Below, piece after piece: positions 20,029 to 64,000 of a stretch of DNA of 64,000 bases. The notes beneath the pieces were generated by a model that was not told the DNA's origin, made no database searches, and saw nothing but the letters and a program-made list of their open reading frames with translations. Origin of the DNA: Acidobacteriota bacterium. GTDB lineage: Bacteria > Acidobacteriota > UBA6911. How positions within the stretch are numbered: the first letter of the stretch is position 1; each line of letters opens with the position of its first letter. The position numbers and the translations under genes are program-made. The stretch is taken from positions 4,864,001-4,928,000 of the forward strand of contig OY761556.1 of assembly GCA_963664705.1 (NCBI GenBank), read 5' to 3'.

Positions 20029-20212
20029 GCAAAGCCGCTACTTCAGGCGCCGGCGTCTCCCGGTGAAATCCCGTCTGCCGTCTTCTGGCTTGCTACGGGA
20101 CTCCGAACTTTTGTAAAATCTCCGCAAAGATTAGCCATGCAAACTTGCTGAAGGCTTGGGGGTCGCCCATTCTCGAGGATGTTTCGGAAGGAGCAGTACG
20201 GGTGGTTTTAGA

Positions 20213-21640
20213 ATGAGCGCGGAAGAATTTCCCAATACTTCAAGACCCGCCCGCATCCTGCTTGTAAAAAGCTGCTGCAATGATCCTGCCTACAAGGTAG
20301 TCAATCATCCTCTGGGTCTGATGAGCATCGCCTCCTACCTGAGGGAAAAATACGGTTGCCAGGCCAAGATCATCGACCTTCGGCTGGATGGCAATAGCCG
20401 CAGCGGACTGGAATCCGAGATTCGTCTTTATGCCCCTGATATTGTCGGCATCAGCGCTTTGACCTTTGAATCCAACGCCATTCCCTGGATCGCCGAAAGC
20501 GCTAAGCGCGTAAATGCAAAAACGCCTGTGCTGTTGGGAGGCCCGCATGCCACCGCGTATCCGGAGCAGGCCGCTCAAATTCCCGGTATTGACTATGTCA
20601 TCGTCGGCGAGGGCGAGGTCGCGGCCGGCAGATTGATCGAACGCATTCTGAATCAGCAGGATCTCTCTGGTTTGAAAGGGATCGCCTATCAGCGCGGGAA
20701 CCAGGTTATTACGACCGTCAGGGAAGATCCGATCGAAGATATCAATCTCCTACCGTCACCCGCCTATGATCTGATTCCCATTGAGCAATACGGGGAATAC
20801 AGCCGAATGAGTCGTACAGGATCAGGCAAATTCATGAGCCTCTTTTCCTCGCGCGGTTGCCCTTACCAGTGCATCTATTGCCACAATATTTTTGGAAAGG
20901 CATTCCGCTTTCGCAGTGCCGAAAACCTTTTTAACGAAATCAAACACCTTTACACCACCTATCAGATCCGCGATTTCGAGATTCTGGATGACATCTTCAA
21001 TCTGGACCGGGAACGGCTGATCGAGTTCTGTGACCGTATCATCTCGAGCGGCATCAAGGTTACCCTGGCCTTCCCGAATGGCGTACGCGGCGACATCCTG
21101 GACGAGGACCAGCTGTCCAAGCTTCGGCAGGCGGGAACAATATTCATGGCCTTCGCCATTGAAACCGGATCGCCGCGCATGCAGAAACTCATCAAGAAAA
21201 ATATCCAGCTCGAGAAAATAAAGAAGAATATAGAGATCGCACACGCTCTCAAAATTCATCCCCATGGATTCTTCATGATCGGCTTCCCCGGCGAGACGCT
21301 GGAGGAAATGCAGATGACCGTCCGGTTCATGGTCGCTTCCAAACTTCATACCATCGCGCTATTTGTGGTTATGCCCTTTGAAGGGACCGAACTGGGAAGA
21401 ATCACGAAGGAAATGGGCAAAGCCCCGGTCAGCGATTTTTCGATGAGCTATCATTCAGAGAGCTTTGTCAACCTGACCAGTGTGCCCGCCAGACAGGTGA
21501 ACCGCCTGCGGCTCCACGCGCTGATGAAGTTTTATCTGAATCCATTCCGGCTGTTTGTGCTGGTGAGAGATTTCCCGAACAAGCGGGAACTAGGTAAGCT
21601 CGTGATGGTTTTTTTCCGACGCCTGCGTTGGCGGGGTTGA
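20213..21640 (+). CDS. Cobalamin-binding radical SAM protein
   Basis: PLGLMSIAS, GGPHAT, GEGE, SRGCPYQCIYC, DDIF, MIGFPGET. Confidence 0.92.
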   Translation: MSAEEFPNTSRPARILLVKSCCNDPAYKVVNHPLGLMSIASYLREKYGCQAKIIDLRLDGNSRSGLESEIRLYAPDIVGISALTFESNAIPWIAESAKRVNAKTPVLLGGPHATAYPEQAAQIPGIDYVIVGEGEVAAGRLIERILNQQDLSGLKGIAYQRGNQVITTVREDPIEDINLLPSPAYDLIPIEQYGEYSRMSRTGSGKFMSLFSSRGCPYQCIYCHNIFGKAFRFRSAENLFNEIKHLYTTYQIRDFEILDDIFNLDRERLIEFCDRIISSGIKVTLAFPNGVRGDILDEDQLSKLRQAGTIFMAFAIETGSPRMQKLIKKNIQLEKIKKNIEIAHALKIHPHGFFMIGFPGETLEEMQMTVRFMVASKLHTIALFVVMPFEGTELGRITKEMGKAPVSDFSMSYHSESFVNLTSVPARQVNRLRLHALMKFYLNPFRLFVLVRDFPNKRELGKLVMVFFRRLRWRG

Positions 21641-21687
21641 AAAATCGAGGGGCGGCAGGCAATCCTCCTCGGGTTTCGCGGTAGCTC

Positions 21688-23133
21688 ATGCGCATTCTTT
21701 TTATCTGCAAAGATATCAACTTGAGCCAGCCCATGGGAATTCTCTCCCTCTCGGCAGTTTTGCGCGCGCAAGGCCACCACACTGATCTGGCGCTGGCTGA
21801 GCGCAGGGGATTCCTGGCGCGAGTGAGCGATTTCAGGCCCGACGTCCTTGCCTACTCCGTGACCACGGGGTTTCACAACTACTACCTTGATCTCAACCGC
21901 CGCCTGAAAACACATCTGGCTGGAGAGGGCCGAAATCCTCTGACGCTGATGGGCGGTCCACATGTCACGTTCTTCCCCGAAATAGTGGAGGCGGAAGGGG
22001 TAGACGCCGTTTGCCGAGGCGAGGGAGAAGATGCGATCGTGGACTTTGTCCATGCGCTGGAGCGGGGCAGCGACTACACGCAAATTGCCAATTTCTGGGT
22101 CAAGACTGGCAGCGGAATAGTCCGGAACGATGTGCGCCCGCTCATAGAGGACCTCGACCGCCTGCCATTTCCCGACCGCGATCTGTTGTTCAGTGTGGAC
22201 CGCTTCACACGCGAATCTCCGGTGAAGGTCTTTTTCCCGAACCGCGGCTGTCCATACCTTTGCACATACTGTTTCAATCATAAGTACAACGCACTTTATT
22301 GCGGCAAAGGAAATATCGTCCGCTACCGATCGGTGGAAAGTGTTCTCGCCGAAATCAAGGAGGTCCGTGCCAGGTGGCCCCTAAAATACCTCTTCTTCCT
22401 TTCGGATAATTTCATCCTGAACAAAGAGTGGGTCGGCGAATTTGCGGCGCGATACCGCGCGGAAATCGGGCTGCCTTTTACCTGCAACGTGCGGGCGAAC
22501 CTTGTGGATGAGAAGGTGGTTTCCGATCTGCGGAAGGCCGGGTGTGTCTCCGTTCTTTTCGGTGTCGAATCGGGAGATGAGCACCTGCGCAACGATGTCC
22601 TGAAGCGGCAGATGTCTGACGACGTCCTGCTTCGCGCCGGCCGTTTGCTGCGCGCGGCCAATATCCGACTTTACACGCAGAACATATTGGCGCTGCCGGG
22701 CGAGGACTTTCGCCAGGCCCTTTCTACCCTAAAGCTGAACCAGAGTTTGCGGCCCGCCTATGCCTGGGCTTCGATTTTTGCGCCGTATCCTTCAAGCGAG
22801 TTGACGGAATACGCCATTGACAACGGGCACTTCGAGGGCGACTCCAACAGGATCAACCCGTCTTTCCATAGCAGGTCGGTCTTGAAGTTCTCCAGTCGAA
22901 AAGAGCGGCGGATGTTCACAAACCTGCACCGGCTTTTTGGCATTTTTGTTGAATGGCCGTCTCTGGGCAGGAATGCCCGACTGTTCTGCGCCTTGCCGCT
23001 GACGCCCGTTTACTCGGTTTTATACAAATTATGGTATGGCTATACCAATCGATACCGGATCTATCCGTACCCGGCATCACCGCGGGAGTCCATGGTCGGG
23101 CTCATTCGTTTTCTCAGGAAAGACCGATCATGA
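21688..23133 (+). CDS. Cobalamin-binding radical SAM protein
   Basis: PMGILSLS, GGPHVT, GEGE, RGCPYLCTYC, GVESG, LPGE. Confidence 0.92.
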   Translation: MRILFICKDINLSQPMGILSLSAVLRAQGHHTDLALAERRGFLARVSDFRPDVLAYSVTTGFHNYYLDLNRRLKTHLAGEGRNPLTLMGGPHVTFFPEIVEAEGVDAVCRGEGEDAIVDFVHALERGSDYTQIANFWVKTGSGIVRNDVRPLIEDLDRLPFPDRDLLFSVDRFTRESPVKVFFPNRGCPYLCTYCFNHKYNALYCGKGNIVRYRSVESVLAEIKEVRARWPLKYLFFLSDNFILNKEWVGEFAARYRAEIGLPFTCNVRANLVDEKVVSDLRKAGCVSVLFGVESGDEHLRNDVLKRQMSDDVLLRAGRLLRAANIRLYTQNILALPGEDFRQALSTLKLNQSLRPAYAWASIFAPYPSSELTEYAIDNGHFEGDSNRINPSFHSRSVLKFSSRKERRMFTNLHRLFGIFVEWPSLGRNARLFCALPLTPVYSVLYKLWYGYTNRYRIYPYPASPRESMVGLIRFLRKDRS

Positions 23134-45115: not shown

Positions 45116-46147
45116 TTGAGAAACAGTTCTCATAGCAAGCGCGTTTTTATGCTGTTATTTATTGCCGGAATAGTCGCATTAGCCATCCGGCATCTGCTAT
45201 TGCCCGCTTCCTTCGGAACTATCGGTCATTACCGAACCCCCAGCCTGAAGGATATGCTGAACTTGGAATCCACGTATCAAAGCGAAAATGCCTGCATCCC
45301 TTGTCATGAAGATAAGTATGAGACCCACAAAAAGGATGTCCACTATGGTGTCCAGTGTGAAAATTGTCATGGGCCGGCCAAAATTCATATTTCGGAAATA
45401 GTGCGCTATCTTGACCAGCGCAACCAAAAACTTACGGAATCAGGAAAGTATGCGAAAACGGTTTTGCAGACCGTTCCAAAAACACTGGCTCAGATGCCCA
45501 AAGAATACACGCTGGAGGGGTGTCTTTACTGCCATCGCAAACTCGATTCCCGTCCCCACGATTTTGCCCAGATAGATCCCAAGGAACACTTCAAGGCTCT
45601 TCACGTAACCGATACGTCAATACGCTGTGTCGAATGCCATAACCCTCACGAACCACTGTATCTGCTGAACCCTGTGAGTGAGGCAAGGATCCACCCAGCC
45701 ATATTCGAGTGCGAATACTGTCACAAAATACGTCCGCAGAAGAGTCACAAATCGGTAGAGAACCATCCCGTGATATTTGAATGCGAAGATTGCCATTCAG
45801 CCATAGTCCAGGATTTTAAAAAGCGGGAGCATGCGTCCATGCGATGTACGCAGTGCCATCTGTACCATCCGGAGAATGAAACATCCGGAAGAATTTATAA
45901 AAATGGAAACAGGCAGTTTTGTCTCTTATGTCATGAAAAGAAGCCCTTTAAAAACCAGCATGATCTCCCGCAAATAGATGCCTCAAAGCACCTGGAGAAA
46001 ATGCCCGGGATTATGAAAAAGGACGCGCTGACTATTATTAATTCCAGAACCGCCTGCCTGGAATGCCACTACAATTTTATTCATGACAGTAACCTCATCA
46101 AAACCCTGCGGGAGCAAAAGCAATGGGCAAAACACGTCATTCTATGA
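45116..46147 (+). CDS. Membrane-anchored nonaheme cytochrome c
   Basis: 9 CxxCH motifs; N-terminal TM helix, then PASFG..GHYR. Confidence 0.88.
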   Translation: MRNSSHSKRVFMLLFIAGIVALAIRHLLLPASFGTIGHYRTPSLKDMLNLESTYQSENACIPCHEDKYETHKKDVHYGVQCENCHGPAKIHISEIVRYLDQRNQKLTESGKYAKTVLQTVPKTLAQMPKEYTLEGCLYCHRKLDSRPHDFAQIDPKEHFKALHVTDTSIRCVECHNPHEPLYLLNPVSEARIHPAIFECEYCHKIRPQKSHKSVENHPVIFECEDCHSAIVQDFKKREHASMRCTQCHLYHPENETSGRIYKNGNRQFCLLCHEKKPFKNQHDLPQIDASKHLEKMPGIMKKDALTIINSRTACLECHYNFIHDSNLIKTLREQKQWAKHVIL

Positions 46148-46893
46148 CCCGTGGAGAATTCGTCCGTTTGGCGCTGTATAGCGCAACGGGAGTTTGCGTC
46201 GGTTCCATGTATGCCTGGGGAACCCTGAAAGATGAACCGATAGAGAAACTCGCTCGTGATTTAAGCAGGTTCGACTGGGCCTTTATTGTTGATACAACCC
46301 GATGTATAGGATGCGGTTCCTGTGTCAGAGCCTGCGGAATAGAAAATAAAGTCCCTGACGGATATTTTCGAACCTGGATAGAACGCTACGAAATAGATAA
46401 GGATGAAAACATCCTTGTCGATTCGCCGGAGGGCGGGAAACAGAGTTTTGCGCAAAACCGGCTGCAGGCTAAAGATATCGTAAAAGGGTTCTTTGTCCCG
46501 AAATTGTGCAATCATTGCCGCAATTCATCGTGCACTCAAGTATGTCCTGTCGGTGCAACCTATCATTCGCCTGACGGAGTTGTTTTGGTGGACAGGAAGC
46601 ACTGCATGGGATGTGGATATTGTGTTCAGGCCTGCCCGTATGGATGTCGCTATATTTCGTATGATATAGGCACGGTTGATAAATGCAGCTTCTGCTATCA
46701 TCGCATCCATCGCGGCCTGCCGACCGCCTGTGTTCAGGCTTGCCCGAGAAGAGCCAGGATCTTTGGAAATCTCAAGGATCCTCACAATCCAGTTTCAGCC
46801 GTGCTGCATTCCCGGCGATATTCCATACTCAAGCCTGAAATGGCCACAAATCCCAAATGCTATTACATTGGCCTTGATCTGGAGGTGATTTAA
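46123..46893 (+). CDS. NrfC/DsrO-like 4x[4Fe-4S] ferredoxin subunit
   Basis: CIGCGSCVRAC, CNHCRNSSCTQVCP, CMGCGYCVQACP, CSFC..ACVQACP; Tat-like TRGEF. Confidence 0.9.
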   Translation: MGKTRHSMTRGEFVRLALYSATGVCVGSMYAWGTLKDEPIEKLARDLSRFDWAFIVDTTRCIGCGSCVRACGIENKVPDGYFRTWIERYEIDKDENILVDSPEGGKQSFAQNRLQAKDIVKGFFVPKLCNHCRNSSCTQVCPVGATYHSPDGVVLVDRKHCMGCGYCVQACPYGCRYISYDIGTVDKCSFCYHRIHRGLPTACVQACPRRARIFGNLKDPHNPVSAVLHSRRYSILKPEMATNPKCYYIGLDLEVI

Positions 46894-48047
46894 TGGGCGA
46901 TTTTGTCTTCCCCAATGAGTTGCATGTTACCTGGACGGTGATGATCGTAATGTATCCTTACATTACCGGTCTTGTGGCCGGCGCCTTTATTGTTTCCTCT
47001 CTGTTTCATGTGTTTGGCTTGAAACAGCTGGAGCCTATTGCCCGTTTCTCACTCGTCTCTTCGTTTGCTTTTCTGCTTTTTGCAACCTTACCCTTGCTCA
47101 ACCATTTGGGAAGACCAGAGCGTGCCATGAATATCCTGATTACTCCTCATTTTACTTCGGCAATGAGCGGGTTTGGGTTTGTCTATTTGACATACACCAT
47201 TATTGTCATTCTGGAAATCTGGTTCCATTACAGGGCCGATTTTGTTGATCGATATCATTCTCCGGACGTTAAATGGAAGGTGATCTATTCAGTATTGCTT
47301 CTCGGCTGCACAACACGCAATGAAGAAACGGATCACATCGATCACAAAACCGTGAAAATACTTGCAGGTATCGGGATCCCGGTTGCCTGTATCCTTCATG
47401 GTTATGTAGGCTTCCTGTTTGGTTCGATCAAAGCCAATCCATGGTGGTCTACACCACTTATGTTCATAATCTTCATTTTTTCCGCCGTTGTATCCGGCAT
47501 TTCCGTACTCATCTTTCTTTACCTCTTTGCGAACTTTCTCAAAAGGCAGAAAATCGATCAGAATGCCCTCAATACCATGGTTCGCTTTCTCTGGGGCTTC
47601 ATGATTATCGCTGTCGTGCTGGAGCTTATGGACCTCCTGTCATTGGCCTATGAGCAGACGCAAAAATGGGCAGTGCTGAAATATCTCATAACCGGACCCC
47701 TGTGGTATACCTATGTGATCGGACAGATAATCATTTGTTCGCTGGGATCATTCCTCCTTCTGACCTGTATAGTCCTGTTTAAGTTGCCACAGAAAATCTC
47801 GAATATACTTGCCTTTATAACTTCAGGCCTTCTTTTGCTGCAGGTGATTATGATGCGATGGAATGTTGTGATAGGCGGACAGCTTGTCTCAAAAAGCTAT
47901 CGTGGATTCACCAGTTTTATGCCGGGATTTCTGGAAAAGGAGGGCATCCTGGTCGCCGCGATCATTTTTATAGTGCCGTTTCTCATGCTGCGTCAATTTG
48001 ACAGGATTTTCCCTTTCTTTCCAGTCTCAAAGAAAAACATATCCTGA
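46893..48047 (+). CDS. nrfD: NrfD/PsrC-family quinol oxidoreductase membrane subunit
   Basis: YPYITGLVAG, HLGRPER, SAMSGFG, HGYVGF, RWNVVIGGQ; multiple TM helices. Confidence 0.88.
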   Translation: MGDFVFPNELHVTWTVMIVMYPYITGLVAGAFIVSSLFHVFGLKQLEPIARFSLVSSFAFLLFATLPLLNHLGRPERAMNILITPHFTSAMSGFGFVYLTYTIIVILEIWFHYRADFVDRYHSPDVKWKVIYSVLLLGCTTRNEETDHIDHKTVKILAGIGIPVACILHGYVGFLFGSIKANPWWSTPLMFIIFIFSAVVSGISVLIFLYLFANFLKRQKIDQNALNTMVRFLWGFMIIAVVLELMDLLSLAYEQTQKWAVLKYLITGPLWYTYVIGQIIICSLGSFLLLTCIVLFKLPQKISNILAFITSGLLLLQVIMMRWNVVIGGQLVSKSYRGFTSFMPGFLEKEGILVAAIIFIVPFLMLRQFDRIFPFFPVSKKNIS

Positions 48048-48065
48048 TTTCGAAGATACCGGCCT

Positions 48066-49082
48066 ATGCGTAACAATACTCGCATTCTACTACTCCTTTT
48101 GGCTGTATTGCCGTCCCTTTCATTTCTTTGGGCAGGTAAGAAACCCACGGAGCCAACAGAATCCTGTGCGACCAGGGAATGTCATAATTCCTATCGTCAG
48201 AAACAATTCGTTCACAAACCCGTGGCGCAAGGCTCATGCAAGTATTGCCACAAGCTCGTGAATCCTAAAACACACACCTTTAAGTTGTTTCGCACCAGGA
48301 CTGAACTCTGCGGTAATTGTCACAAGGAGATACTCCAGGGAAAAAACCTTCACAAACCGCTGGAACAGGGGCAATGCACGGAATGCCACAACCCGCATAG
48401 CAGCGATAACAAAGCCCTTGTCCGATTTGCAAACATTGAGGAGGCATGCCGCAAGTGTCATAAAAAGAAGGAAGACGTGAAAAATCCTCACGAACCGGCG
48501 GCCAAAGGCAAATGCACCGCCTGTCACAGCAGTCACAGCTCACCCTATAGACCATTGCTCATCAATAGCCAGCGGCAGCTGTGCTTCTCCTGTCATGAAA
48601 AGACAAAATGGGAATTGGATGAGTATAAGTATGTTCATAAACCGGCCACAGATCGGGGATGCAGGGTTTGTCATGAACCACATGGAAGCGATTACTACCG
48701 GTTGCTGGTCAAGGAGTATACCCCGGAATTCTATGCTCCATTTGATATTGCGAATTATGCACTTTGTTTCACGTGCCATCAGGCCAATCTGGTGTTAAAC
48801 AAGGAAACGGACAATGCGACCGATTTCAGAAATGGGAAAGTGAACCTTCACTACCTGCATGTTAACACGCAGGAAAGGGGACGGACCTGCCGGACGTGTC
48901 ATGCCACCCACGCAAGCAATGAGCCCCGGCACTTGCGCAAGGTGGTCCCCTATGGGGACTGGGAGATTCCAATTCAGTTCAACAAAACAGAAACCGGCGG
49001 CGGATGCTCTCCTGGTTGTCACAATCCGCGGACCTATGACAGGGTCGAAGCAGTTGTTTACAAATCCGATGGAGCGCATTAG
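48066..49082 (+). CDS. Periplasmic multiheme cytochrome c (paired-CxxCH type; 9 CxxCH + 2 variant motifs)
   Basis: Signal peptide; 9 CxxCH plus CATRECH and CSPGCH; H.P...G.C..CH.PH.S repeats. Confidence 0.9.
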   Translation: MRNNTRILLLLLAVLPSLSFLWAGKKPTEPTESCATRECHNSYRQKQFVHKPVAQGSCKYCHKLVNPKTHTFKLFRTRTELCGNCHKEILQGKNLHKPLEQGQCTECHNPHSSDNKALVRFANIEEACRKCHKKKEDVKNPHEPAAKGKCTACHSSHSSPYRPLLINSQRQLCFSCHEKTKWELDEYKYVHKPATDRGCRVCHEPHGSDYYRLLVKEYTPEFYAPFDIANYALCFTCHQANLVLNKETDNATDFRNGKVNLHYLHVNTQERGRTCRTCHATHASNEPRHLRKVVPYGDWEIPIQFNKTETGGGCSPGCHNPRTYDRVEAVVYKSDGAH

Positions 49083-49139
49083 GCCAATATCTGTTTTTGA
49101 GAACCCGGGCCAGCAAAAGGAAACAGACGAGGGATAGAG

Positions 49140-50405
49140 ATGTATCTCAGGTTGGACAGCCGTTCCAGGAATTCCGGGCAAATCCGAGACAGGATTGTGC
49201 GGACACTCTTCACAGGGTTTATGGGGCTTGCGCTTCTGGTGAGCTGCAGGACGCTTTCCGCACAGGAACCGAATCCGGGACCGGGGCCAATCTATGGTCC
49301 GCATTCGCCACTGGGTTCAAGGGAATGCACGGACTGCCACAAGCGGGCAGTTTCAACCACCCTGCGCTGCCTGGCAGCCAAAACGGATCTGTGTGAATTT
49401 TGTCACCAGGTTCCTCCGGAAGGAGGTCTTGCCCAACAGGTTCGTTCATCGGAGCCACTTTGCTTCAAGTGCCACAAAAGAGATCAATTCAAAGCCAACT
49501 ATGCTCATGGTCCTTTCATTGCTGGAGCTTGCGTTACCTGTCACGATCCGCATGGTGGAGAGGTTCCGGGAATGCTGCGCATTGCGGGTTCACAATTGTG
49601 CCTGGATTGCCATAAGGATTTCAGCGCGCGTTTTTCAAATGCGAGTTTCCGGCATAAGGCCGCTGTCAATAATTGCCTGGATTGTCATTCCCCACACATG
49701 TCCGACCAACGACACCTGCTGAAGTCAGCGCCCCCCGGGCTTTGTGGTAAATGTCACCAGGGAATCATCGGAGATCTTCAAACTGCCGCAGTCATACATT
49801 CACCAGCCAGGGAAACGCCTTCCTGTATGAACTGCCACGATCCGCACATGGCAAAGGAAAAAAGTCTGCTCCTAGCGGACAGGTTAGACAGTTGTCTGAA
49901 GTGCCATGACAAACCGGTTAAAGGCGCTAAAGAAGAATTCGCGGATATGAAGAAACTGCTGGAAGCAAATCCGTATCCGCACGGACCGATCCAAAGCAGA
50001 GACTGTTCGACATGCCACAACCCGCACAGTTCGTCCTATTCCCGACTATTGACGAACCAATACGCTCCGGGCTTTTATGCTCCTTTTTTCATTTCAAATT
50101 ACAGCCTCTGTTTCCGCTGCCACGATGCCGTGCTGGCTACCGAAGAGCATACAACCAGTACCACGGAGTTCCGCGACGGCGATCGCAATCTTCATTATGT
50201 TCACGTCAGCAAGGCATCTCACGGAAGGACCTGCCGTTCGTGTCATGAGGTTCATGCAAGCTCGGGCCAGAAGCACATCGCGAAAACCGTCCCCTTTGGA
50301 AATTGGGAACTCCCGGTTCAATACGAAAAAACTGAAGATGGAGGCACCTGTACGCCGGGCTGCCATACTGTGCAGAAATACAGCCGCCAGCAGGGCAAGC
50401 AGTAA
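49140..50405 (+). CDS. Periplasmic multiheme cytochrome c (12 CxxCH + 1 variant), paralog of the upstream gene
   Basis: 12 CxxCH plus CTPGCH; shares C-terminal FYAPF..NY.LCF.CH..FR.G..NLHY.HV..GRTCR.CH. Confidence 0.9.
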   Translation: MYLRLDSRSRNSGQIRDRIVRTLFTGFMGLALLVSCRTLSAQEPNPGPGPIYGPHSPLGSRECTDCHKRAVSTTLRCLAAKTDLCEFCHQVPPEGGLAQQVRSSEPLCFKCHKRDQFKANYAHGPFIAGACVTCHDPHGGEVPGMLRIAGSQLCLDCHKDFSARFSNASFRHKAAVNNCLDCHSPHMSDQRHLLKSAPPGLCGKCHQGIIGDLQTAAVIHSPARETPSCMNCHDPHMAKEKSLLLADRLDSCLKCHDKPVKGAKEEFADMKKLLEANPYPHGPIQSRDCSTCHNPHSSSYSRLLTNQYAPGFYAPFFISNYSLCFRCHDAVLATEEHTTSTTEFRDGDRNLHYVHVSKASHGRTCRSCHEVHASSGQKHIAKTVPFGNWELPVQYEKTEDGGTCTPGCHTVQKYSRQQGKQ

Positions 50406-52785: not shown

Positions 52786-53742
52786 TTAAATCTGAGGCGG
52801 TTGGCCTGCACGGCTGCCCTCCGCCGGAAACAAAAACGAGGCAACCACGGAAAGGAAAAGCAATGCCGCCACGATCCCCAGGGACAACGCAATGGGCACA
52901 TGGAAAAAGCCGGCGATCAGCATCTTGATTCCTACGAACGCCAGCACAAGTCCAAGGCCGACCTTCAGGAATCTGAATTTCCCAATCATCCCGGCCAAAA
53001 GGAAATACAGTGCGCGCAATCCGAGAATGGCAAAAATATTGGATGTGAACACAATAAAGGGATCCGTCGTGACAGCAAAAATCGCGGGAATGGAGTCTAC
53101 CGCAAAGACGATGTCGGTGGCTTCAATGGCCAAAAGCACCATCAGCAGGGGGGTGGCATATCGTCGCCCCGCTTCCTTCACGGTGAACCTGGCGCCCCGA
53201 TAGTCCGGAACGGACGGGATAATCCGGCGCGATAGACGGAGTACGATATTACGCTCCGGGCTTATATTGCCTCCCTCTCGTGCTGCCAATAGTTTGATGC
53301 CGGTGAAAACCAGGAACGCTCCGAAGATATAGATCACCCACTGGAACTGCTGGATGAGTGCCGCGCCGGCCATAATAAAGCCCGCGCGCATGAGGAGCGC
53401 TCCGACGATGCCCCAGAAAAGCACTCTGTGCTGAAGCTGTGTCGGAACGGCAAAATATGAAAACAAAACCAGGAAAACAAAAAGATTGTCGACCGAAAGA
53501 GCCTTCTCGATCAGGTACCCGGTCAGAAATTCGAGTGCGCGGTCCTGTCCAAACCAGAAATAAACGCCCGCGTTAAACAAAATTGCAAGTCCGATCCAAA
53601 CCACCGACCAGGCAAGCGCTTCACGCATTTTTACGGCGTGTGCATTGCGGTGGAACACCCCGAGATCCAGGGCGAGCATCGCAAGAACGAAAATAGTGAA
53701 CCCTATCCACATCGCGGGCGTTCCGATACTCACAGCCACCAT
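52786..53742 (-). CDS. terC: TerC/Alx family metal-homeostasis membrane protein
   Basis: GYLIEKALSVDNLFVF, QHRVLFWG, DIVFAVDSIPA, SNIFAILGLRALY. Confidence 0.92.
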   Translation of the reverse strand: MVAVSIGTPAMWIGFTIFVLAMLALDLGVFHRNAHAVKMREALAWSVVWIGLAILFNAGVYFWFGQDRALEFLTGYLIEKALSVDNLFVFLVLFSYFAVPTQLQHRVLFWGIVGALLMRAGFIMAGAALIQQFQWVIYIFGAFLVFTGIKLLAAREGGNISPERNIVLRLSRRIIPSVPDYRGARFTVKEAGRRYATPLLMVLLAIEATDIVFAVDSIPAIFAVTTDPFIVFTSNIFAILGLRALYFLLAGMIGKFRFLKVGLGLVLAFVGIKMLIAGFFHVPIALSLGIVAALLFLSVVASFLFPAEGSRAGQPPQI

Positions 53743-53779
53743 TTCAATTCTCCCGACAAAGCTATGGCACGCATCCGGT

Positions 53780-54049
53780 TCACAGCGCACTCCCGGCAAC
53801 TCGCGGCTTTCCGTGAGTTGGCACCGATTTCTGTCGATAGCGCTTCGGGGCTTGTGACGGCCAATGTACCTCCAATTCGAGATCCACCTCTCCGAGACAG
53901 ATCTCCAATTCCTCTTCAACCACTACATGATCCGGGATCTGGATTGACTTGCTTCCGATCTTGACCGGCTTGCCCACGGATATCTGCAGCGCAAGATAGT
54001 GAAGCCGTCGCGCCAGGGCATAGCGGCTCAATTTCCGTTTTGTTTTCAT
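53780..54049 (-). CDS. Amphi-Trp domain-like small protein
   Basis: LSR..LA..L..LA, then beta-rich ...ELELEVHW; GGAG RBS. Confidence 0.6.
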   Translation of the reverse strand: MKTKRKLSRYALARRLHYLALQISVGKPVKIGSKSIQIPDHVVVEEELEICLGEVDLELEVHWPSQAPKRYRQKSVPTHGKPRVAGSAL

Positions 54050-54136
54050 ACGGCCATCTCCATTTGCAAAGCACCTCTATTGTCAGAATACGGAACGGGC
54101 CTTCACTTAGACAAACAGATAAAATAACCTTATTTA

Positions 54137-54151
54137 TTCGATTTAATCGAA
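54137..54151. promoter_or_regulatory. LysR/NhaR-type operator between divergent genes
   Basis: Perfect palindrome ttcgatt-t-aatcgaa (T-N11-A). Confidence 0.6.
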
Positions 54152-54164
54152 GTATAGTTCCGTA

Positions 54165-55103
54165 ATGGAATGGATCAACTACCACCATCTGCTCTATTTC
54201 TGGATCGTATCCCGGGAAGGGAATCTTGCACGTGCGAGCGCAGAGTTGCGCCTCGCCCAATCAACCGTGAGCAAGCAGATCCATCAGCTCGAGGCGATGC
54301 TTGGCCACAAGCTTTTCTCCAAAACCGGTCGCCGGCTGGTGTTGACCGAAAGCGGCCGCGTGGTCTTCCGGTATGCCGAAGAGATTTTCGGTCTTGGCCG
54401 GGAGATGGTCGATACCCTCGGAGATCGCCCGGTCGGAAAGCCGCTTCGGGTAACAGTCGGAGTTGCTGACATTGTCCCCAAACTGGTGGCCGAGCACGTT
54501 CTGGCTCCCGCCCTAAAGTTGACGGGGCAAGTGCGGCTGATATGCAGGGAGGACAAACCGGATCGCCTGCTGGCCAATCTGGCTCTGCATGAATTGGATG
54601 TTATTTTGACGGATGCTCCGGCCAGTCCGCAGGTAAACATCCGCGCATTCAGCCATTTGCTGGGATCTTCAGAGGTCGCCTTTTTCGGCCGATCGGAGCT
54701 CGTGTCGAGATATCGTCGCAATTTCCCGGCCTCGCTGAATAGCGCACCGGTCCTCCTCCCGACGGAGAACACCATGATGCGCAGGTCCCTGGAGCAGTGG
54801 TTTGAATCGGAAGGGATCCGGCCGGATGTTGTCGGAGAATTTGAAGACAGTGCGCTTCTAAACGTATTTGGGTTTCGAGGGGCAGGGCTGTTCCCGGCAG
54901 CCTCGGTGATCTCCAGGGAGCTCGAAAAGCAATACAAAGTCCGTTGCGCCGGCATCGTAGCGGGCGTTCAAGAACGGCTCTATGCGGTCACGGTGGAACG
55001 ACGGATAAAACATCCGACAGTCGCCGCGATCATCAAGGCAGCCGAGACTTGGTTTAAGCCGGCCCAGGGCGGAAGCCGGGAAATAGTTTCCACGCATCCT
55101 TAG
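54165..55103 (+). CDS. nhaR: LysR-family transcriptional activator NhaR
   Basis: MEWINYHHLLYFW, YAEEIF.LG.E, GVADIVPK, GEFEDSALL, ERRIKHP. Confidence 0.88.
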   Translation: MEWINYHHLLYFWIVSREGNLARASAELRLAQSTVSKQIHQLEAMLGHKLFSKTGRRLVLTESGRVVFRYAEEIFGLGREMVDTLGDRPVGKPLRVTVGVADIVPKLVAEHVLAPALKLTGQVRLICREDKPDRLLANLALHELDVILTDAPASPQVNIRAFSHLLGSSEVAFFGRSELVSRYRRNFPASLNSAPVLLPTENTMMRRSLEQWFESEGIRPDVVGEFEDSALLNVFGFRGAGLFPAASVISRELEKQYKVRCAGIVAGVQERLYAVTVERRIKHPTVAAIIKAAETWFKPAQGGSREIVSTHP

Positions 55104-57466: not shown

Positions 57467-57703
57467 TTAGTTCATTTTTTGGATAGAGGATATTTCCACG
57501 TTTGCGGAATTCAGCAGAGCGCGTACCCGCGGTTCATCGCACCAATCGAAGCGCAGCGCCATCCCGCAGTCGCTCGAAAACTCACGGGGTGTGGGAATTA
57601 ATTTGACCGAAAATCCATCCTTCAGCAGAAGCTTTTCCGAACGCAATGCCGCCGAACTTGTGTAAAACAGAATCACACCAAATATTTTGATCTCTTGAGG
57701 CAT
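57467..57703 (-). CDS. DUF3343 family protein (putative Se/S carrier)
   Basis: F.TSSAALRSEKLL..IPTPREFSSDCGMALRF. Confidence 0.88.
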   Translation of the reverse strand: MPQEIKIFGVILFYTSSAALRSEKLLLKDGFSVKLIPTPREFSSDCGMALRFDWCDEPRVRALLNSANVEISSIQKMN

Positions 57704-57709
57704 AGTGCA

Positions 57710-58852
57710 CTATTGAAGAATTTTATTTACCGCGTCGACCGCCAGATCCACTTCTTCCTTCGTTGCCTCCAATCCCAAGGCTAAACGAACAGTACCGTCA
57801 GGAAATGTCCCGATCGTACGATGAGCCGCCGGCGCACAGTGTAAGCCAACACGGCTCAGGATTCCAAATTCATCGTCCAGACGCAATCCAATTTCGGAGA
57901 CGCGATGCCGGGCTGCAGTGAAGGAAACAATCGATGTACGCCGAGTCACATCCGCAGGGCCGTAGATGTCGACTCCATCCATATTCGCCAACCCTTCAAT
58001 GAGCCGCCGGGTCAACTCAATTTCCCTTGCGCGAATCGCCTCAATTCCTCTTTCCATTATGTACTGAAGGCCGGCGCCAAGTCCGGCAATTCCCGGGCCG
58101 TTCAAAGTACCGCTTTCAAATTTATCCGGCAAATCTTCAGGCTGTATCTCGAATTCAGAACGGCTCCCGGTGCCTCCGCGCCAGAGGGGCTTCATCTCTT
58201 CAGGATGCGCTGCGCTTCCGATTATCAATCCGCCGGTTCCCTGCGGCCCCTGCAATCCCTTATGCCCGGTGAAGGCCAAGAGATCGATGCCCATGGCGCC
58301 CATATCGATGGGCACAACACCCGCCGTTTGCGCCGCATCGACCAGCAACAATGCGCCTGCTTGATGGACTATCCTCGCAATCTCATGAATCGGAAGAATG
58401 GTGCCAACGACATTGCTGGCATGAGTAACCACCACCATTCGGGTAGAGGGACGCAATGCACTGGCAAAAGACTCCGGAGCCACAGAGCCATCCCGCGCAC
58501 AGGATATCACCGTTAGTTCGATCCCTTTTTTTTCGAGATCCCGCAGCGGCCTCATGACGGCATTGTGTTCCATCGAGCTTGTGATGACATGATCTCCCGG
58601 TCCTAAAATCCCGTAGAGACACAGATTGATTGCCTGGGTAGCGTTGGCTGTGAAGATTACTTTCAGGGGATCCGGGGCATTGAAGAAATTCGCCAGAGTT
58701 TCGCGCACGTTGTAGACGATGCGTCCGGCCTCGATGGACAAACGGTGCCCGGCACGACCCGGATTGCCGCCCCTCACCAGGAAATCTGCCATCGCATGGA
58801 GAACAGCGGGCGGTTTCGGCCAGGAGGTTGCGGCATGATCGAGATATATCAT
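57710..58852 (-). CDS. Cysteine desulfurase/selenocysteine lyase-like class V aminotransferase
   Basis: MIYLDHAATSWPKP, NPGR.GH, DAAQTAG, FTGHKGLQGPQG, RVGLHCAP. Confidence 0.92.
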   Translation of the reverse strand: MIYLDHAATSWPKPPAVLHAMADFLVRGGNPGRAGHRLSIEAGRIVYNVRETLANFFNAPDPLKVIFTANATQAINLCLYGILGPGDHVITSSMEHNAVMRPLRDLEKKGIELTVISCARDGSVAPESFASALRPSTRMVVVTHASNVVGTILPIHEIARIVHQAGALLLVDAAQTAGVVPIDMGAMGIDLLAFTGHKGLQGPQGTGGLIIGSAAHPEEMKPLWRGGTGSRSEFEIQPEDLPDKFESGTLNGPGIAGLGAGLQYIMERGIEAIRAREIELTRRLIEGLANMDGVDIYGPADVTRRTSIVSFTAARHRVSEIGLRLDDEFGILSRVGLHCAPAAHRTIGTFPDGTVRLALGLEATKEEVDLAVDAVNKILQ

Positions 58853-58858
58853 GGGCCT

Positions 58859-59581
58859 TTATTCCAGACAATTTTGCGACATCAAGGTCGCTTCATAGAA
58901 GTTCACACCCAGATAGCACCAAGTGCCATTTCGTCGGTACTGCGCCAGACCGCGTTGGGTGCGGCCGTCAAGGTAAGAGAACAGGCCCTCGGAAAAAGCA
59001 TCATACTCGGCGGGCTGGAAAGGCCGTTCGACCCTGGCCCTGCGTCGGAGAGTAAATCCTTTCCTTTCGAACAGCGGCATGACTCTCAACGGAAAGGCCC
59101 AATCGGTAATCAGCATATATAGCCGTCCGCCGGGCATGAGATAGCGTTCGGCTTTCGCGGCCAGTCTGCGCAGGTATTTGAGCCCATCAGGTCCCCCATA
59201 CCTGGCTGCGAGAATCGGTTTCGGAGCAGGAAGCTGCGGAAGGGTTGTGATGATAATGTCAAACCGTTCCCCTCGGACCGGAGCAAAGAGGGATCCGACG
59301 CGTCCATCAACCCGCGTGATGCCATTCCGGGCGGCATTCCGGAGTGCGCAGGTTACGGCGGCGGGATCAATATCGGTAAGGACGATTTCTCCCGCTCCGC
59401 GCACCGCAGTGGAAAGACCATAGCCTCCCGCCCCGCAGCCGAGGTCAAGAACTCTGTCGCCGCGCCGAACGCGTATCGCCGCCGCAACCGTATCCGCATA
59501 CGGATCCGGATGATGCACCGGCGAGTCCACCGATAGGGAAATTGGGCTGTGGGGAGGAACCTGCAACTTAAATTTTTTCAT
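58859..59581 (-). CDS. Class I SAM methyltransferase (HemK-like fold)
   Basis: VLDLGCGAG, TDID, GSLF, FDIIITTLPQLP, YGGPDG; start at 59581 or 59608. Confidence 0.8.
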   Translation of the reverse strand: MKKFKLQVPPHSPISLSVDSPVHHPDPYADTVAAAIRVRRGDRVLDLGCGAGGYGLSTAVRGAGEIVLTDIDPAAVTCALRNAARNGITRVDGRVGSLFAPVRGERFDIIITTLPQLPAPKPILAARYGGPDGLKYLRRLAAKAERYLMPGGRLYMLITDWAFPLRVMPLFERKGFTLRRRARVERPFQPAEYDAFSEGLFSYLDGRTQRGLAQYRRNGTWCYLGVNFYEATLMSQNCLE

Positions 59582-59628
59582 AAAAAAATCTCTTTGATAA
59601 AAAAACACTCAATCGAATTACATAATGG

Positions 59629-60735
59629 CTAGGCTGTCGTTTTTTCTCTCATCAGCAAACCAAGAGTGACGCAAACAAGGATGCCGACGATCACCGCAAC
59701 CGGACCATAGGGACTGGGACCGGCCGGAGAGCTTGCCAGATTGAAATTGTGGGCAAATCCTGCGCCGACAAGCATGCCTATGACAAAGACGGCGGCATCG
59801 CCATCCCCTTCGCCGGACAAAAAGACCTGGCGGCCGGGACATCCTCCCGCCAGAGTAAATGCCAGGCCGGACAAAAGCATTCCGGCAAAATTCCACAATC
59901 CAAAGGTGTGCGCTATCGGCTGCTCCGCAAAACCGGGCTTAAATTGCCCCAACGCCAGGTTGGTTACAAATGAGGCCAGAACCAAAGCGATCACTCCGCT
60001 GAACAGATTCACATTTTTCAGGAGGATCAGATCCCGCACGGCTCCGACCGTACAGAATCGGCTGCGCTGCGCCAGAAACCCGATCAGCAAACCGGCAGCC
60101 AGGGAAATCCATATTCCCGCATGTTGGCTGCCGGGACCTTTCGCCGACAGAAATATCGGACCGATGGGTTTACCTTCCGGATCCCGCCCCAGTTGCGGCG
60201 CAAGGATCAATAAAAGCAGCAGGCCGATCATCAGAGCAGGCATTACCCATCCGAGCACATTAGAAGCCGGATGCGATCGCCCCAAGCTAAAGCCCATACG
60301 CAACAGGACTACGCCCACTGCAACCCCCGCTGCCAAACCGAGAATTCCCAGAAGTGCATTCCAGTCGCCGCCGCCCAGACGCAGAAAAGCGCGCCAGGGA
60401 CAACCCAGAAACACGAGAGCTCCGATCATGGAAAGAGCGCCCAGAAGAAATTTGATGAGCGGAGAAGATCCGGTGCGTGGACGGAATTCACGAAAGATCA
60501 ATGCCGCAACAAGAGATCCCAATATAAAACCGATGATCTCGGGCCGTATATATTGAACGGTGGCCGCGCGGTGAAAACCCAGGGCTCCCGCAATATCCCG
60601 GCTGAAACAGGCAACACAAACACCCATATTGGCAGGATTGCCCAGCTTGACCAAAATGGGAGCCAGCACACCCACCGCTAGCCCCGTGACAATTATTCCC
60701 CCGCGGGAAGACAGGAAACGGCCAATTGCGGACAT
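59629..60735 (-). CDS. yedE: YedE-family putative selenium-metabolism transporter (YeeE/YedE)
   Basis: GNPANMGVCVACFSRD, YIRPEI, FLGCPWR, QRSRFC, GGCPGRQ; AAGGAA RBS. Confidence 0.92.
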   Translation of the reverse strand: MSAIGRFLSSRGGIIVTGLAVGVLAPILVKLGNPANMGVCVACFSRDIAGALGFHRAATVQYIRPEIIGFILGSLVAALIFREFRPRTGSSPLIKFLLGALSMIGALVFLGCPWRAFLRLGGGDWNALLGILGLAAGVAVGVVLLRMGFSLGRSHPASNVLGWVMPALMIGLLLLLILAPQLGRDPEGKPIGPIFLSAKGPGSQHAGIWISLAAGLLIGFLAQRSRFCTVGAVRDLILLKNVNLFSGVIALVLASFVTNLALGQFKPGFAEQPIAHTFGLWNFAGMLLSGLAFTLAGGCPGRQVFLSGEGDGDAAVFVIGMLVGAGFAHNFNLASSPAGPSPYGPVAVIVGILVCVTLGLLMREKTTA

Positions 60736-60821: not shown

Positions 60822-61667
60822 CTATGAAATAGCATCTTGAGTAATTGGCAAATACCCGACCGCATCGGACCGGCATCGCGTGCAATGATGCATCTGCCGG
60901 ACATAGGGACTCGCCCGCTGTCTCAACCATCTCATCTTTTCCTCACTGGGAGCCGCTATGCCCGCCATTTCTGTTCCAGCCAGAGGGATCAACGGCAGAA
61001 AATTCATCAAGTCCACCTGGAGGTTGCCCAGGTTCTTGGCAAGAAACGGCAAATGGTGTTCATTGATTCCAGGAACAACAACAGTGTTGATCTTGACGAT
61101 GATTCCGGCAGCTTTCAAACGACCGATGGCTTCGAGCTGCGTAGATATCAGGCCATGAGCCGCTTCCATACCTCTGAAGATTCTTCCGGCAATCGAAATC
61201 CACGGATGCAGCCGCGCCCCGATGAAGGGATCGATTGCATTGACCGTGATCGTTACATAGCCGACGTTCAAGGCGGACAAGTGCGGGATAGAGCCCATCA
61301 CATTCAATCCATTGGTGGAGACGCACAAAGCAATGTCCGGATTTTTCCTGCGAATAAGCTCAAAGGTCTTCAAGGTGCATTCCGGATCACAGAAGGCATC
61401 TCCCGGTCCCGCCACCGCCGCTACCGAGATGTGCGGCGTTTCTCGGAGTACCTGTTCCAGCCGCTCGGATGCTTCTTCCGGGCTCAACACGCCGGTGCAG
61501 ACACCGGGTCGGTTTTCATTGGGACAATCATGATCGCGGCGGCAATACGCACATTGGATATTGCAGGACGCAGCTACAGGCAGATGCACCCGCCCATATT
61601 TCCCTTTGGCCCCGGCATAAAAGCAGGGATGAATTTTCTGTTGCGTAGGCACGATGGCAGATGACAT
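60822..61667 (-). CDS. nifB: NifB-family radical SAM (SAM domain only)
   Basis: HPC, CNIQCAYC, ENRP, AGPG, TITVN and CTRCRSDAVG are all present; no NifX-like domain. Confidence 0.85.
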   Translation of the reverse strand: MSSAIVPTQQKIHPCFYAGAKGKYGRVHLPVAASCNIQCAYCRRDHDCPNENRPGVCTGVLSPEEASERLEQVLRETPHISVAAVAGPGDAFCDPECTLKTFELIRRKNPDIALCVSTNGLNVMGSIPHLSALNVGYVTITVNAIDPFIGARLHPWISIAGRIFRGMEAAHGLISTQLEAIGRLKAAGIIVKINTVVVPGINEHHLPFLAKNLGNLQVDLMNFLPLIPLAGTEMAGIAAPSEEKMRWLRQRASPYVRQMHHCTRCRSDAVGYLPITQDAIS

Positions 61668-63592: not shown

Positions 63593-63628
63593 CTTATACA
63601 TATATGCTATCTATATGTCAAATAGATA
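63593..63628 (-). promoter_or_regulatory. Sigma70 promoter of the selenium-associated operon with overlapping LysR-type palindrome
   Basis: Minus strand TTGACA(63616-21)-17nt-TATAAG(63593-98); palindrome tatctat-7-atagata (63608-63628) centred on the -35. Confidence 0.7.
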
Positions 63629-63701: not shown

Positions 63702-64000
63702 ATGGAACTGAGATATATCGAGATATTCTGCGCAGTGGTAGAACTGAAGAGCTTTTCCAAGGCCGCCCAGGCGTTGCATCTGACTCAACCGACGATCAGC
63801 GTGCATATCAAAGCCCTGGAAGACGAGTTTTCGACCAAGCTTCTGGACCGTCTTGGCAGAACGATCCTGCCGACCCAGGATGGCGAAATTCTTTACAGGT
63901 ATGCAAAAGAGATCGTCACTCTGAAAGAGAATGCGCGCAAGGCGATGGAAAGGGTCACCGGCACGGTGAGCGGCAAGCTTACTATCGGCGCAAGCACGAT
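63702..64000 (+). CDS. LysR-family regulator (selenium-metabolism-associated type by context), 3'-truncated
   Basis: Own translation: MELRYIEIFCAVVELKSFSKAAQALHLTQPTISVHIKALEDEFSTKLLDRLGR...GKLTIGAST; GAGGG RBS. Confidence 0.9.
   Translation, partial: MELRYIEIFCAVVELKSFSKAAQALHLTQPTISVHIKALEDEFSTKLLDRLGRTILPTQDGEILYRYAKEIVTLKENARKAMERVTGTVSGKLTIGAST

Follow-up and report, generated by a model that had tools for sequence, protein, structure and literature searches.

A stand-alone NifB forms a conserved gene trio with a twin-arginine ModA-fold protein and a NapH-like polyferredoxin in bacteria with and without nitrogenase

A stand-alone NifB encoded in a 64,000-nucleotide stretch of an Acidobacteriota genome (64 kb, hereafter the window) belongs to a three-gene unit, together with a ModA-fold protein bearing a twin-arginine (Tat) signal (hereafter SBP) and a NapH-like membrane polyferredoxin. 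This trio is real and conserved and, as it appears, undescribed, and its NifB likely makes an eight-iron cluster for its partners, not for nitrogen fixation. Bacterial NifB proteins and their homologues are known solely as maturases for nitrogenase-fold enzymes, and the one non-nitrogenase precedent is archaeal. The trio offers a concrete candidate client in bacteria without any nitrogenase-family gene, including cultured Veillonella. Because a candidate is named, the three-gene unit is small and Veillonella is cultured, the idea of other users of the carbide-centred eight-iron cluster becomes directly testable. If the exported ModA-fold protein carries the cluster, the system would be categorically new: an L-cluster enzyme from bacteria, human-associated Veillonella among them, whose fold has nothing to do with that of nitrogenase. 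An earlier reading of the window from its sequence alone had singled out the nifB gene and missed its two invariant upstream partners, the ModA-fold and NapH-like genes.

Table 1. Features of the trio and its surroundings (positions in the window unless stated otherwise).
Feature	Position	Strand	Remarks
Stand-alone NifB radical-SAM domain	60822..61667	-	281-aa ORF; profile and structure-database matches
NapH-like membrane polyferredoxin, 267 aa	61668..62471	-	Stop codon abuts nifB start
ModA-fold SBP_bac_11 protein (SBP), 289 aa	62464..63333	-	Twin-arginine (RRAFL) signal; invariant C50/C119/C185
Overlapping ATA-N9-TAT repeats between SBP and LysR starts	63596..63616	.	Possible LysR site
LysR, selenium-metabolism-associated family, divergent	63702..64000, runs past window	+	Full length 312.9 bits, cut-off 250
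Alginate_exp outer-membrane barrel, after LysR, outside window	genome C1:4928695-4930182		
YedE putative selenium transporter, accessory neighbour	59629..60735	-	TIGR04112, 493.6 bits, cut-off 200
Class I SAM methyltransferase, HemK-like	58859..59608	-	Below cut-offs
Cysteine desulfurase / selenocysteine-lyase-like PLP enzyme	57710..58852	-	TIGR01977 above cut-off; SclA model below
DUF3343 putative Se/S carrier	57467..57703	-	PF11823

The window protein is, by its sequence, an intact NifB, and the full NifB signature that had been read in its 281-residue SAM domain is confirmed for both motifs and ligands. HPC (residue 13), CNIQCAYC (35), ENRP (51), AGPG (86), TITVN (139) and CTRCRSDAVG (262) pass the six-motif filter (HPC, CX3CX2C, ExRP, AGPG, TxTxN, CX2CRxDAxG) by which the accessible text of Arragain 2017 (PMC5715403) defines NifB. 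The TIGR01290 match (284.7 bits, E 1e-84; residues 9-273 on profile positions 8-276 of 441) covers the SAM domain only and stays under the whole-protein cut-off of 343.65, the model including a C-terminal part, the NifX part, that is absent here. In the PDB, the solved methanogen NifBs were matched (6Y1X, E 6e-69; 7BI7/7JMB, E 3e-57). The ligand sets are C15/H28/C115, C35/C39/C42, C48/E51 and C262/C265; aligned with the reference ligands given in the sections available of PMC10114646 (C29/H42/C128/C62/E65 of 6Y1X and C260/C263 of 7BI7), all K1, K2 and plug-loop ligands are present (C15, H28, C115, C48, E51, C262 and C265). Among the 63 NifB rows from loci with the order SBP-NapH-NifB, the cluster ligands on that list are kept in 63/63 and H261/C262/C265 in 62, the remaining row being truncated.

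The three genes are tightly coupled, with an 8-bp overlap between the SBP and NapH-like genes, a gap of 0 bp before nifB, and nifB as the last gene. Downstream follow the YedE, methyltransferase, desulfurase/Sec-lyase-like and DUF3343 genes in that order; L024 is the only further locus at which the methyltransferase adjoins the trio. A scan for promoters and terminators gave signals at chance level. Selenocysteine within the trio was considered and rejected: the single TGA flagged, in G016, is a normal stop, and the NifB, SBP, NapH-like, YedE and SclA matches of loci L019-L102 contain no internal stops.

As had been stated from the sequence, nifH, nifD, nifK, nifE and nifN are absent from the window: tblastn with the genome's own NifH and NifD (E 1e-3) returned nothing there, and a genome-wide PF00148 search placed zero matches for NifK, NifE or NifN inside it. 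The genome as a whole is another matter. A complete nifHDKENB cluster lies at C1:4.624-4.633 Mb, about 295 kb from the window NifB; it contains nifH, four PF00148 genes and a nifB whose 427-aa product exceeds the TIGR01290 cut-off and is 45% identical to the window protein. The window nifB is therefore neither nif-linked nor the sole nifB of the genome; it is a second, extra gene, and since a nifB is also present in the nif cluster itself, simple relocation is excluded. A second nitrogenase-like pair without nifB (G000:C1:6416471-6419972, L017) would formally fit a relocated gene. It comprises a 735-aa NifH/NifD-like fusion, whose best match is CfbC-type and below the cut-off, and a 436-aa PF00148 protein; cassette carriers of the same genus have no such pair. 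Its neighbours look, we presume, like cobalamin biosynthesis genes, and it is possibly a tetrapyrrole reductase.

SBP has a class II binding-protein fold in its predicted structure (pLDDT 91.7; Foldseek TM 0.76-0.79; ModA Z 26, rmsd 2.1 A over 225 residues) and is not an ordinary ModA. It shares the fold with ModA of ModABC, but its TIGR01256 score of 41.4 bits does not reach the cut-off of 62.5, the Ser12 of ModA is replaced by Gly, a Tat motif is present (in 119/120 homologues), and three Cys (C50, C119 and C185) are invariant in 120/120, with no conserved His across the same 120. Neither modB nor modC occurs within 3 kb at 162 loci, and a true modA is located elsewhere in the host genome. 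C50 aligns to A10 of E. coli ModA in the lobe 1 anion site. C185 starts the matching lobe 2 helix in HMMER alignments; since it falls in a gap of the MAFFT ModA alignment, its placement at the cleft rests on those HMMER alignments and on the helix start. PDB entry 3AXF is, by its title, an A11C/R153C ModA mutant. The SBP alignment gave a 27-column match only against E. coli ModA in hhalign. We take positions A11 and R153 of 3AXF to lie close across the ModA cleft. A predicted NifB-SBP complex scored 0.14 against a mark of 0.32, which gives no verdict. Distant ModA-fold proteins that keep a WxCGG-type Cys and a lobe 2 Cys were also seen in P0256 (Armatimonadota), P0259 (lipoprotein-like) and P0280 (TPR-fused).

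The NapH-like protein carries the motifs of the NapH/MauN family, namely two CxxxCP (C95/C99, C195/C199) and two 4Fe-4S motifs (C222-C232, C243-C253), within a set of 16 invariant Cys. Four of these, C51, C60, C63 and C68, lie outside the NapH-type motifs. NapH itself is a membrane electron conduit. The NapGH-type modules (NapH/MauN/NosR family) share with the trio these motifs, the membrane location and the position beside a Tat-signal protein, whereas the trio has an extra four-Cys loop, no linked napA or napG, and a partner with a binding-protein fold. The TIGR02163 score (56.1 bits) does not reach the cut-off of 213.05. Only two hydrophobic peaks exceed 1.5, so any topology is tentative, and the structural model is poor (pLDDT 59), with zero Foldseek matches at E 1e-3.

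Two gene orders of the trio were seen, and its carriers belong to Acidobacteriota, Desulfobacterota, Zixibacteria and Veillonella. When GTDB genomes were scanned with the NapH-like protein as seed, 79 loci emerged, from which 12 distant NapH loci (L091-L102, 24-30% identity, without SBP or NifB) were dropped; the other 67 are close relatives, and 38 of them are from Veillonella, most of which were left out of clustering and trees. SBP is present in 64 of the 67, the other three being truncated at the end of a contig; NifB is the neighbour in 58, is absent in seven and falls at a contig end in two. The non-Veillonella loci carry the names Acidobacteriota, Zixibacteria, Desulfobacterota-type or unclassified proteobacteria, the nearest named relatives being Acidobacteriota. 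In an SBP-seeded metagenome scan, of which the best 80 of 317 matches were kept, the NapH-like gene follows SBP in 66/67 evaluable loci, and NifB lies downstream in 39, upstream in 16 and is absent in four of the 80, with 21 too short. The trio is rare. With centre genomes included, SBP was found in 15/401 Desulfobacterota genomes and in 2/301 of Veillonella's phylum, where an even draw of 300 genomes yielded one further carrier; within the host's own genus, 4/24 genomes have NifB with the trio alongside. Viral contigs yielded zero trio loci. Among plasmids, 254 records matched, and the 30 listed show ordinary or unannotated NifB-like matches. Among individual loci, P0246 encodes a 562-aa NifB-SBP fusion with the Tat motif retained between the two parts; this single-member cluster may be a genuine fusion or may reflect loss of a stop codon. 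In P0087 the NapH-like protein is fused to a truncated SBP, and at the Desulfatiglans locus (L027:11631-16150) what we take to be NifX-like and Mrp/MinD-like genes lie downstream of the trio.

The second gene order, barrel-NifB-SBP-NapH-like, is found at 15 loci (L140, L146, L147, L153, L157, L159, L162, L163, L166, L167, L170, L172, L232, L235 and L238). Their NifBs form one clade and have neither the plug-loop C48/E51, nor ExRP, nor the H261 before CxxC, so not all cassettes keep the full NifB signature. A quick, unrooted NifB tree of 117 rows was built without archaeal NifB and without partial matches of fewer than 235 aligned residues. The window NifB falls in a clade of 17 with support 99, all of them cassette NifBs and apart from the genome's nif NifB; cassette NifBs overall are not one clade in this quick unrooted tree (3 changes). 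The cassette NifBs of L175 and L183 nest inside canonical nif NifB clades, a position that suggests that an ordinary nifB, shorn of its NifX part, has taken the place of the cassette gene.

Many carriers have no nitrogenase. Both partner genes occur in 59 genomes (41, 14 and G008, G009, G016 and G000, with G042 counted once with G004), most of which are MAGs with completeness unreported. Thirty have no PF00148 protein over the cut-off, two have divergent nif-like genes only, and 27 have nif. The nitrogenase-free 30 include G009 (100% complete) and G016 (98%) of the host's own genus and 12/12 Veillonella genomes. A group IV NFL system was also sought: PF00148 and NifH are both absent at the window locus, and PF00148 passes its cut-off in none of the 30. 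The non-nitrogenase client that had been proposed for the window NifB accordingly draws support from these 30 relatives, while its own genome does contain a nitrogenase. Searches of G068, G076 and G260, on the Negativicutes side, found TatC in all three but no NifH, NifX-family or double-cubane protein; a NifX-family carrier protein, present in G009 and G016, was on this account rejected as a constant component.

In the genomes examined, the partners do not occur without NifB. NifB is present in 59/59 genomes carrying both partner genes, and in the even Desulfobacterota draw it is present in 14/14 SBP carriers versus 14/60 SBP-less genomes (of 386 non-carriers). The cassette nifB is absent from 10 genomes that keep the SBP and NapH-like genes and internally deleted in two (L030, L040). 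A nif-cluster nifB is present in 12/12 of these genomes; among the genomes outside Veillonella whose cassette nifB is intact, the figure is 15/35 (Fisher 4e-4, related genomes not being independent; seven of the 12 losses come from the NapH-seeded scan, not the even draw). Kinship inflates this figure, yet the loss cases are spread over the SBP tree, with 10 parsimony changes, at least four of them forced by strong branches, and no more clustering than in shuffles. The co-occurrence, the loss pattern and the nesting of L175 and L183 are most simply explained if the partners require the activity of NifB and an ordinary NifB can stand in, which points to an ordinary NifB product; the residues missing from the second-order NifBs speak against this. 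We regard the trio as a NifB-dependent functional unit with good confidence.

As to what the unit does, our leading reading is tentative and falls somewhat short of an even chance: NifB may build an [8Fe-9S-C] L-cluster-type cofactor for the Tat-exported ModA-fold protein, which would be wired to the polyferredoxin. NifB would fuse two 4Fe-4S clusters and insert carbide to give the L-cluster, and the three-Cys ModA-fold protein, the presumed recipient rather than the membrane protein, would take this up while still in the cytoplasm. Tat exports proteins already loaded with cofactor in the cytoplasm, and the loaded ModA-fold protein is predicted to leave by this route. The NapH-like polyferredoxin might then move electrons to or from it as part of a periplasm-facing redox module, and the Alginate_exp barrel, where present, might admit the substrate, for which a small sulfur or selenium anion is our guess. 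A bolder version, which we consider rather unlikely, makes the ModA-fold protein a periplasmic enzyme whose carbide-centred eight-iron cluster is clamped by Cys of the two lobes, supplied by a dedicated NifB and driven by the polyferredoxin without ATP or Fe protein. According to section 2.5.2 of PMC13474568, L-cluster-like cofactors are held by Cys/His pairs in McrC and Mmp7. An L-cluster needs two protein ligands; the conserved residues of SBP, three Cys with no His among them, would suit one cubane or a metalloid of thiophilic character at least as well.

The same loss pattern is equally compatible with the partners serving NifB. SBP would then bind sulfite or selenite through its Cys, and the polyferredoxin would reduce it or pass it on to NifB with electrons; the cluster would stay on NifB as a catalyst or go to an unlinked client. 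This alternative comes close to the chalcogen-supply idea of the sequence-only reading. The chemistry has precedent, as the available text of PMC13474568 reports that sulfite gives the ninth sulfur and that selenite or tellurite replaces it in vitro, and that of PMC13245594 that L-cluster-bound NifB reduces N2 without ATP. Genes for selenium and sulfur metabolism recur beside the trio in unrelated lineages, none of them constant: among 113 loci plus our own, YedE and YedF were each seen near it 11 times, SclA-like proteins eight, SelD five, rhodanese 13, the selenium-type LysR eight and the barrel 15 times. Since these selenium genes are frequent but optional neighbours, the supply of chalcogen by neighbouring genes is unproven, its support being confined to the gene neighbourhood. 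YedE occurs in 27/49 cassette genomes and is missing from 22/49, and there is no linked permease. SelD co-occurrence was set aside as uninformative, with SelD in 49/49 cassette genomes versus 51/60 cassette-less controls (37/40 in matched groups). Ordinary nif systems, moreover, do without such partners, as the SBP and NifB counts in Desulfobacterota given above show, and no unlinked client was found in Veillonella. We judge service to NifB unlikely, though by no means negligible. In the host genome itself selD is present twice (C1:2046792 and 3076698), one copy containing an in-frame TGA, and ARAGORN calls tRNA-Sec three times.

A client in the membrane seems improbable to us. The NapH-like protein would receive the cluster through its four-Cys loop or its CxxxCP motifs, with SBP merely delivering substrate; the four invariant Cys outside the NapH-type motifs and the near-constant pairing with SBP in the metagenome loci suit this arrangement. 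Tat export, as generally understood, suggests instead that SBP folds with a cofactor in the cytoplasm, and the NapH-like model is too poor to judge.

Altered chemistry, which we hold to be quite improbable, would have NifB make a selenium-substituted or carbide-free eight-iron cluster or a methylated chalcogen, possibly for a double-cubane protein. The second-order NifBs without plug-loop residues would fit, and a double-cubane protein lies near the trio in 16, and its ATPase activator in 13, of 113 loci (e.g. L124:4753-6817). NF040772, however, passes its cut-off in only 34/49 cassette genomes and not in G000, G009, G016 or Veillonella, which rules out the double-cubane protein as a universal client, and the apparent substitution by canonical NifB points to an ordinary product.

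Least probable by our estimate, and largely refuted because nitrogenase-free carriers exist, is the view that the window gene is a spare NifB, or one that has moved, serving nitrogenase or the second nif-like pair amid incidental neighbours: this genome has both a nitrogenase and a pair without nifB, and 15/35 non-Veillonella genomes with an intact trio have nif, but a nifB is already part of the nif cluster, the window NifB sits in a separate all-cassette clade, and the trio occurs, in two gene orders, in 30 genomes without any NifD/K-family gene.

The preferred reading, a cluster made for the ModA-fold protein, can be placed beside several known systems. With the nitrogenase NifBs (TIGR01290; 6Y1X, 7BI7, 7JMB) the trio NifB shares all six motifs as well as the ligands of the RS, K1, K2 and plug-loop sites; it differs in having no NifX domain, no nif linkage, NifD/K-free host genomes and fixed partners of other families. 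A stand-alone SAM domain is in itself not unusual, since methanogens and 24% of bacterial NifBs have it, as stated in the text seen of PMC5715403. Methanogen NifB is essential without nitrogenase, and nitrogenase maturation is its only known bacterial role according to the authors, in the portion at hand of bioRxiv 2023.10.20.563283; L-cluster-like cofactors are described in the MCR activation complex (PMC12176620 and PMC13474568, in the passages available). Common to the methanogen NifB/MCR system and the trio are a NifB kept without nitrogenase and an implied non-nitrogenase client, whereas the trio is bacterial and has as its candidate client not McrC/Mmp7 but a ModA-fold protein with a Tat signal, accompanied by a membrane polyferredoxin. 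MarB, NflB and IsrB are, in the parts consulted of PMC13474568 and PMC13753814, likewise NifB homologues serving a system other than N2 fixation; MarB and NflB serve nitrogenase-fold enzymes (PMC13753814). These genes adjoin nflHDK in the same sections, whereas the trio cassette has no nitrogenase-fold gene and often neither does the genome. A literature search covering few subscription journals found no published description of the trio or of a nitrogenase-free bacterial NifB trio; Supplementary Table 1 of Arragain and the NifB tree data of PMC12176620, supplements outside that search, may list such sequences. For practice, nifB alone is no marker of nitrogen fixation, and nitrogenase engineering gains from the trio many NifBs that are small, mesophilic and stand-alone.

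At the Veillonella locus, an RNA assembly gave seven short low-depth pieces, cassette and flanks alike, with one run probably DNA, and two raw-read RNA runs gave 0 reads, which counts as no expression test. Elsewhere in the window, positions 45116-50405 hold an operon for multiheme cytochromes with paired CXXCH motifs, an NrfD-type membrane subunit and a 4Fe-4S protein. At 52786-55103 the gene for a TerC/Alx membrane protein lies next to that for a LysR regulator, NhaR-like and divergently oriented, and at 20156-23130 two radical SAM genes of the B12-binding type stand in tandem, with glycosylation-like genes alongside.
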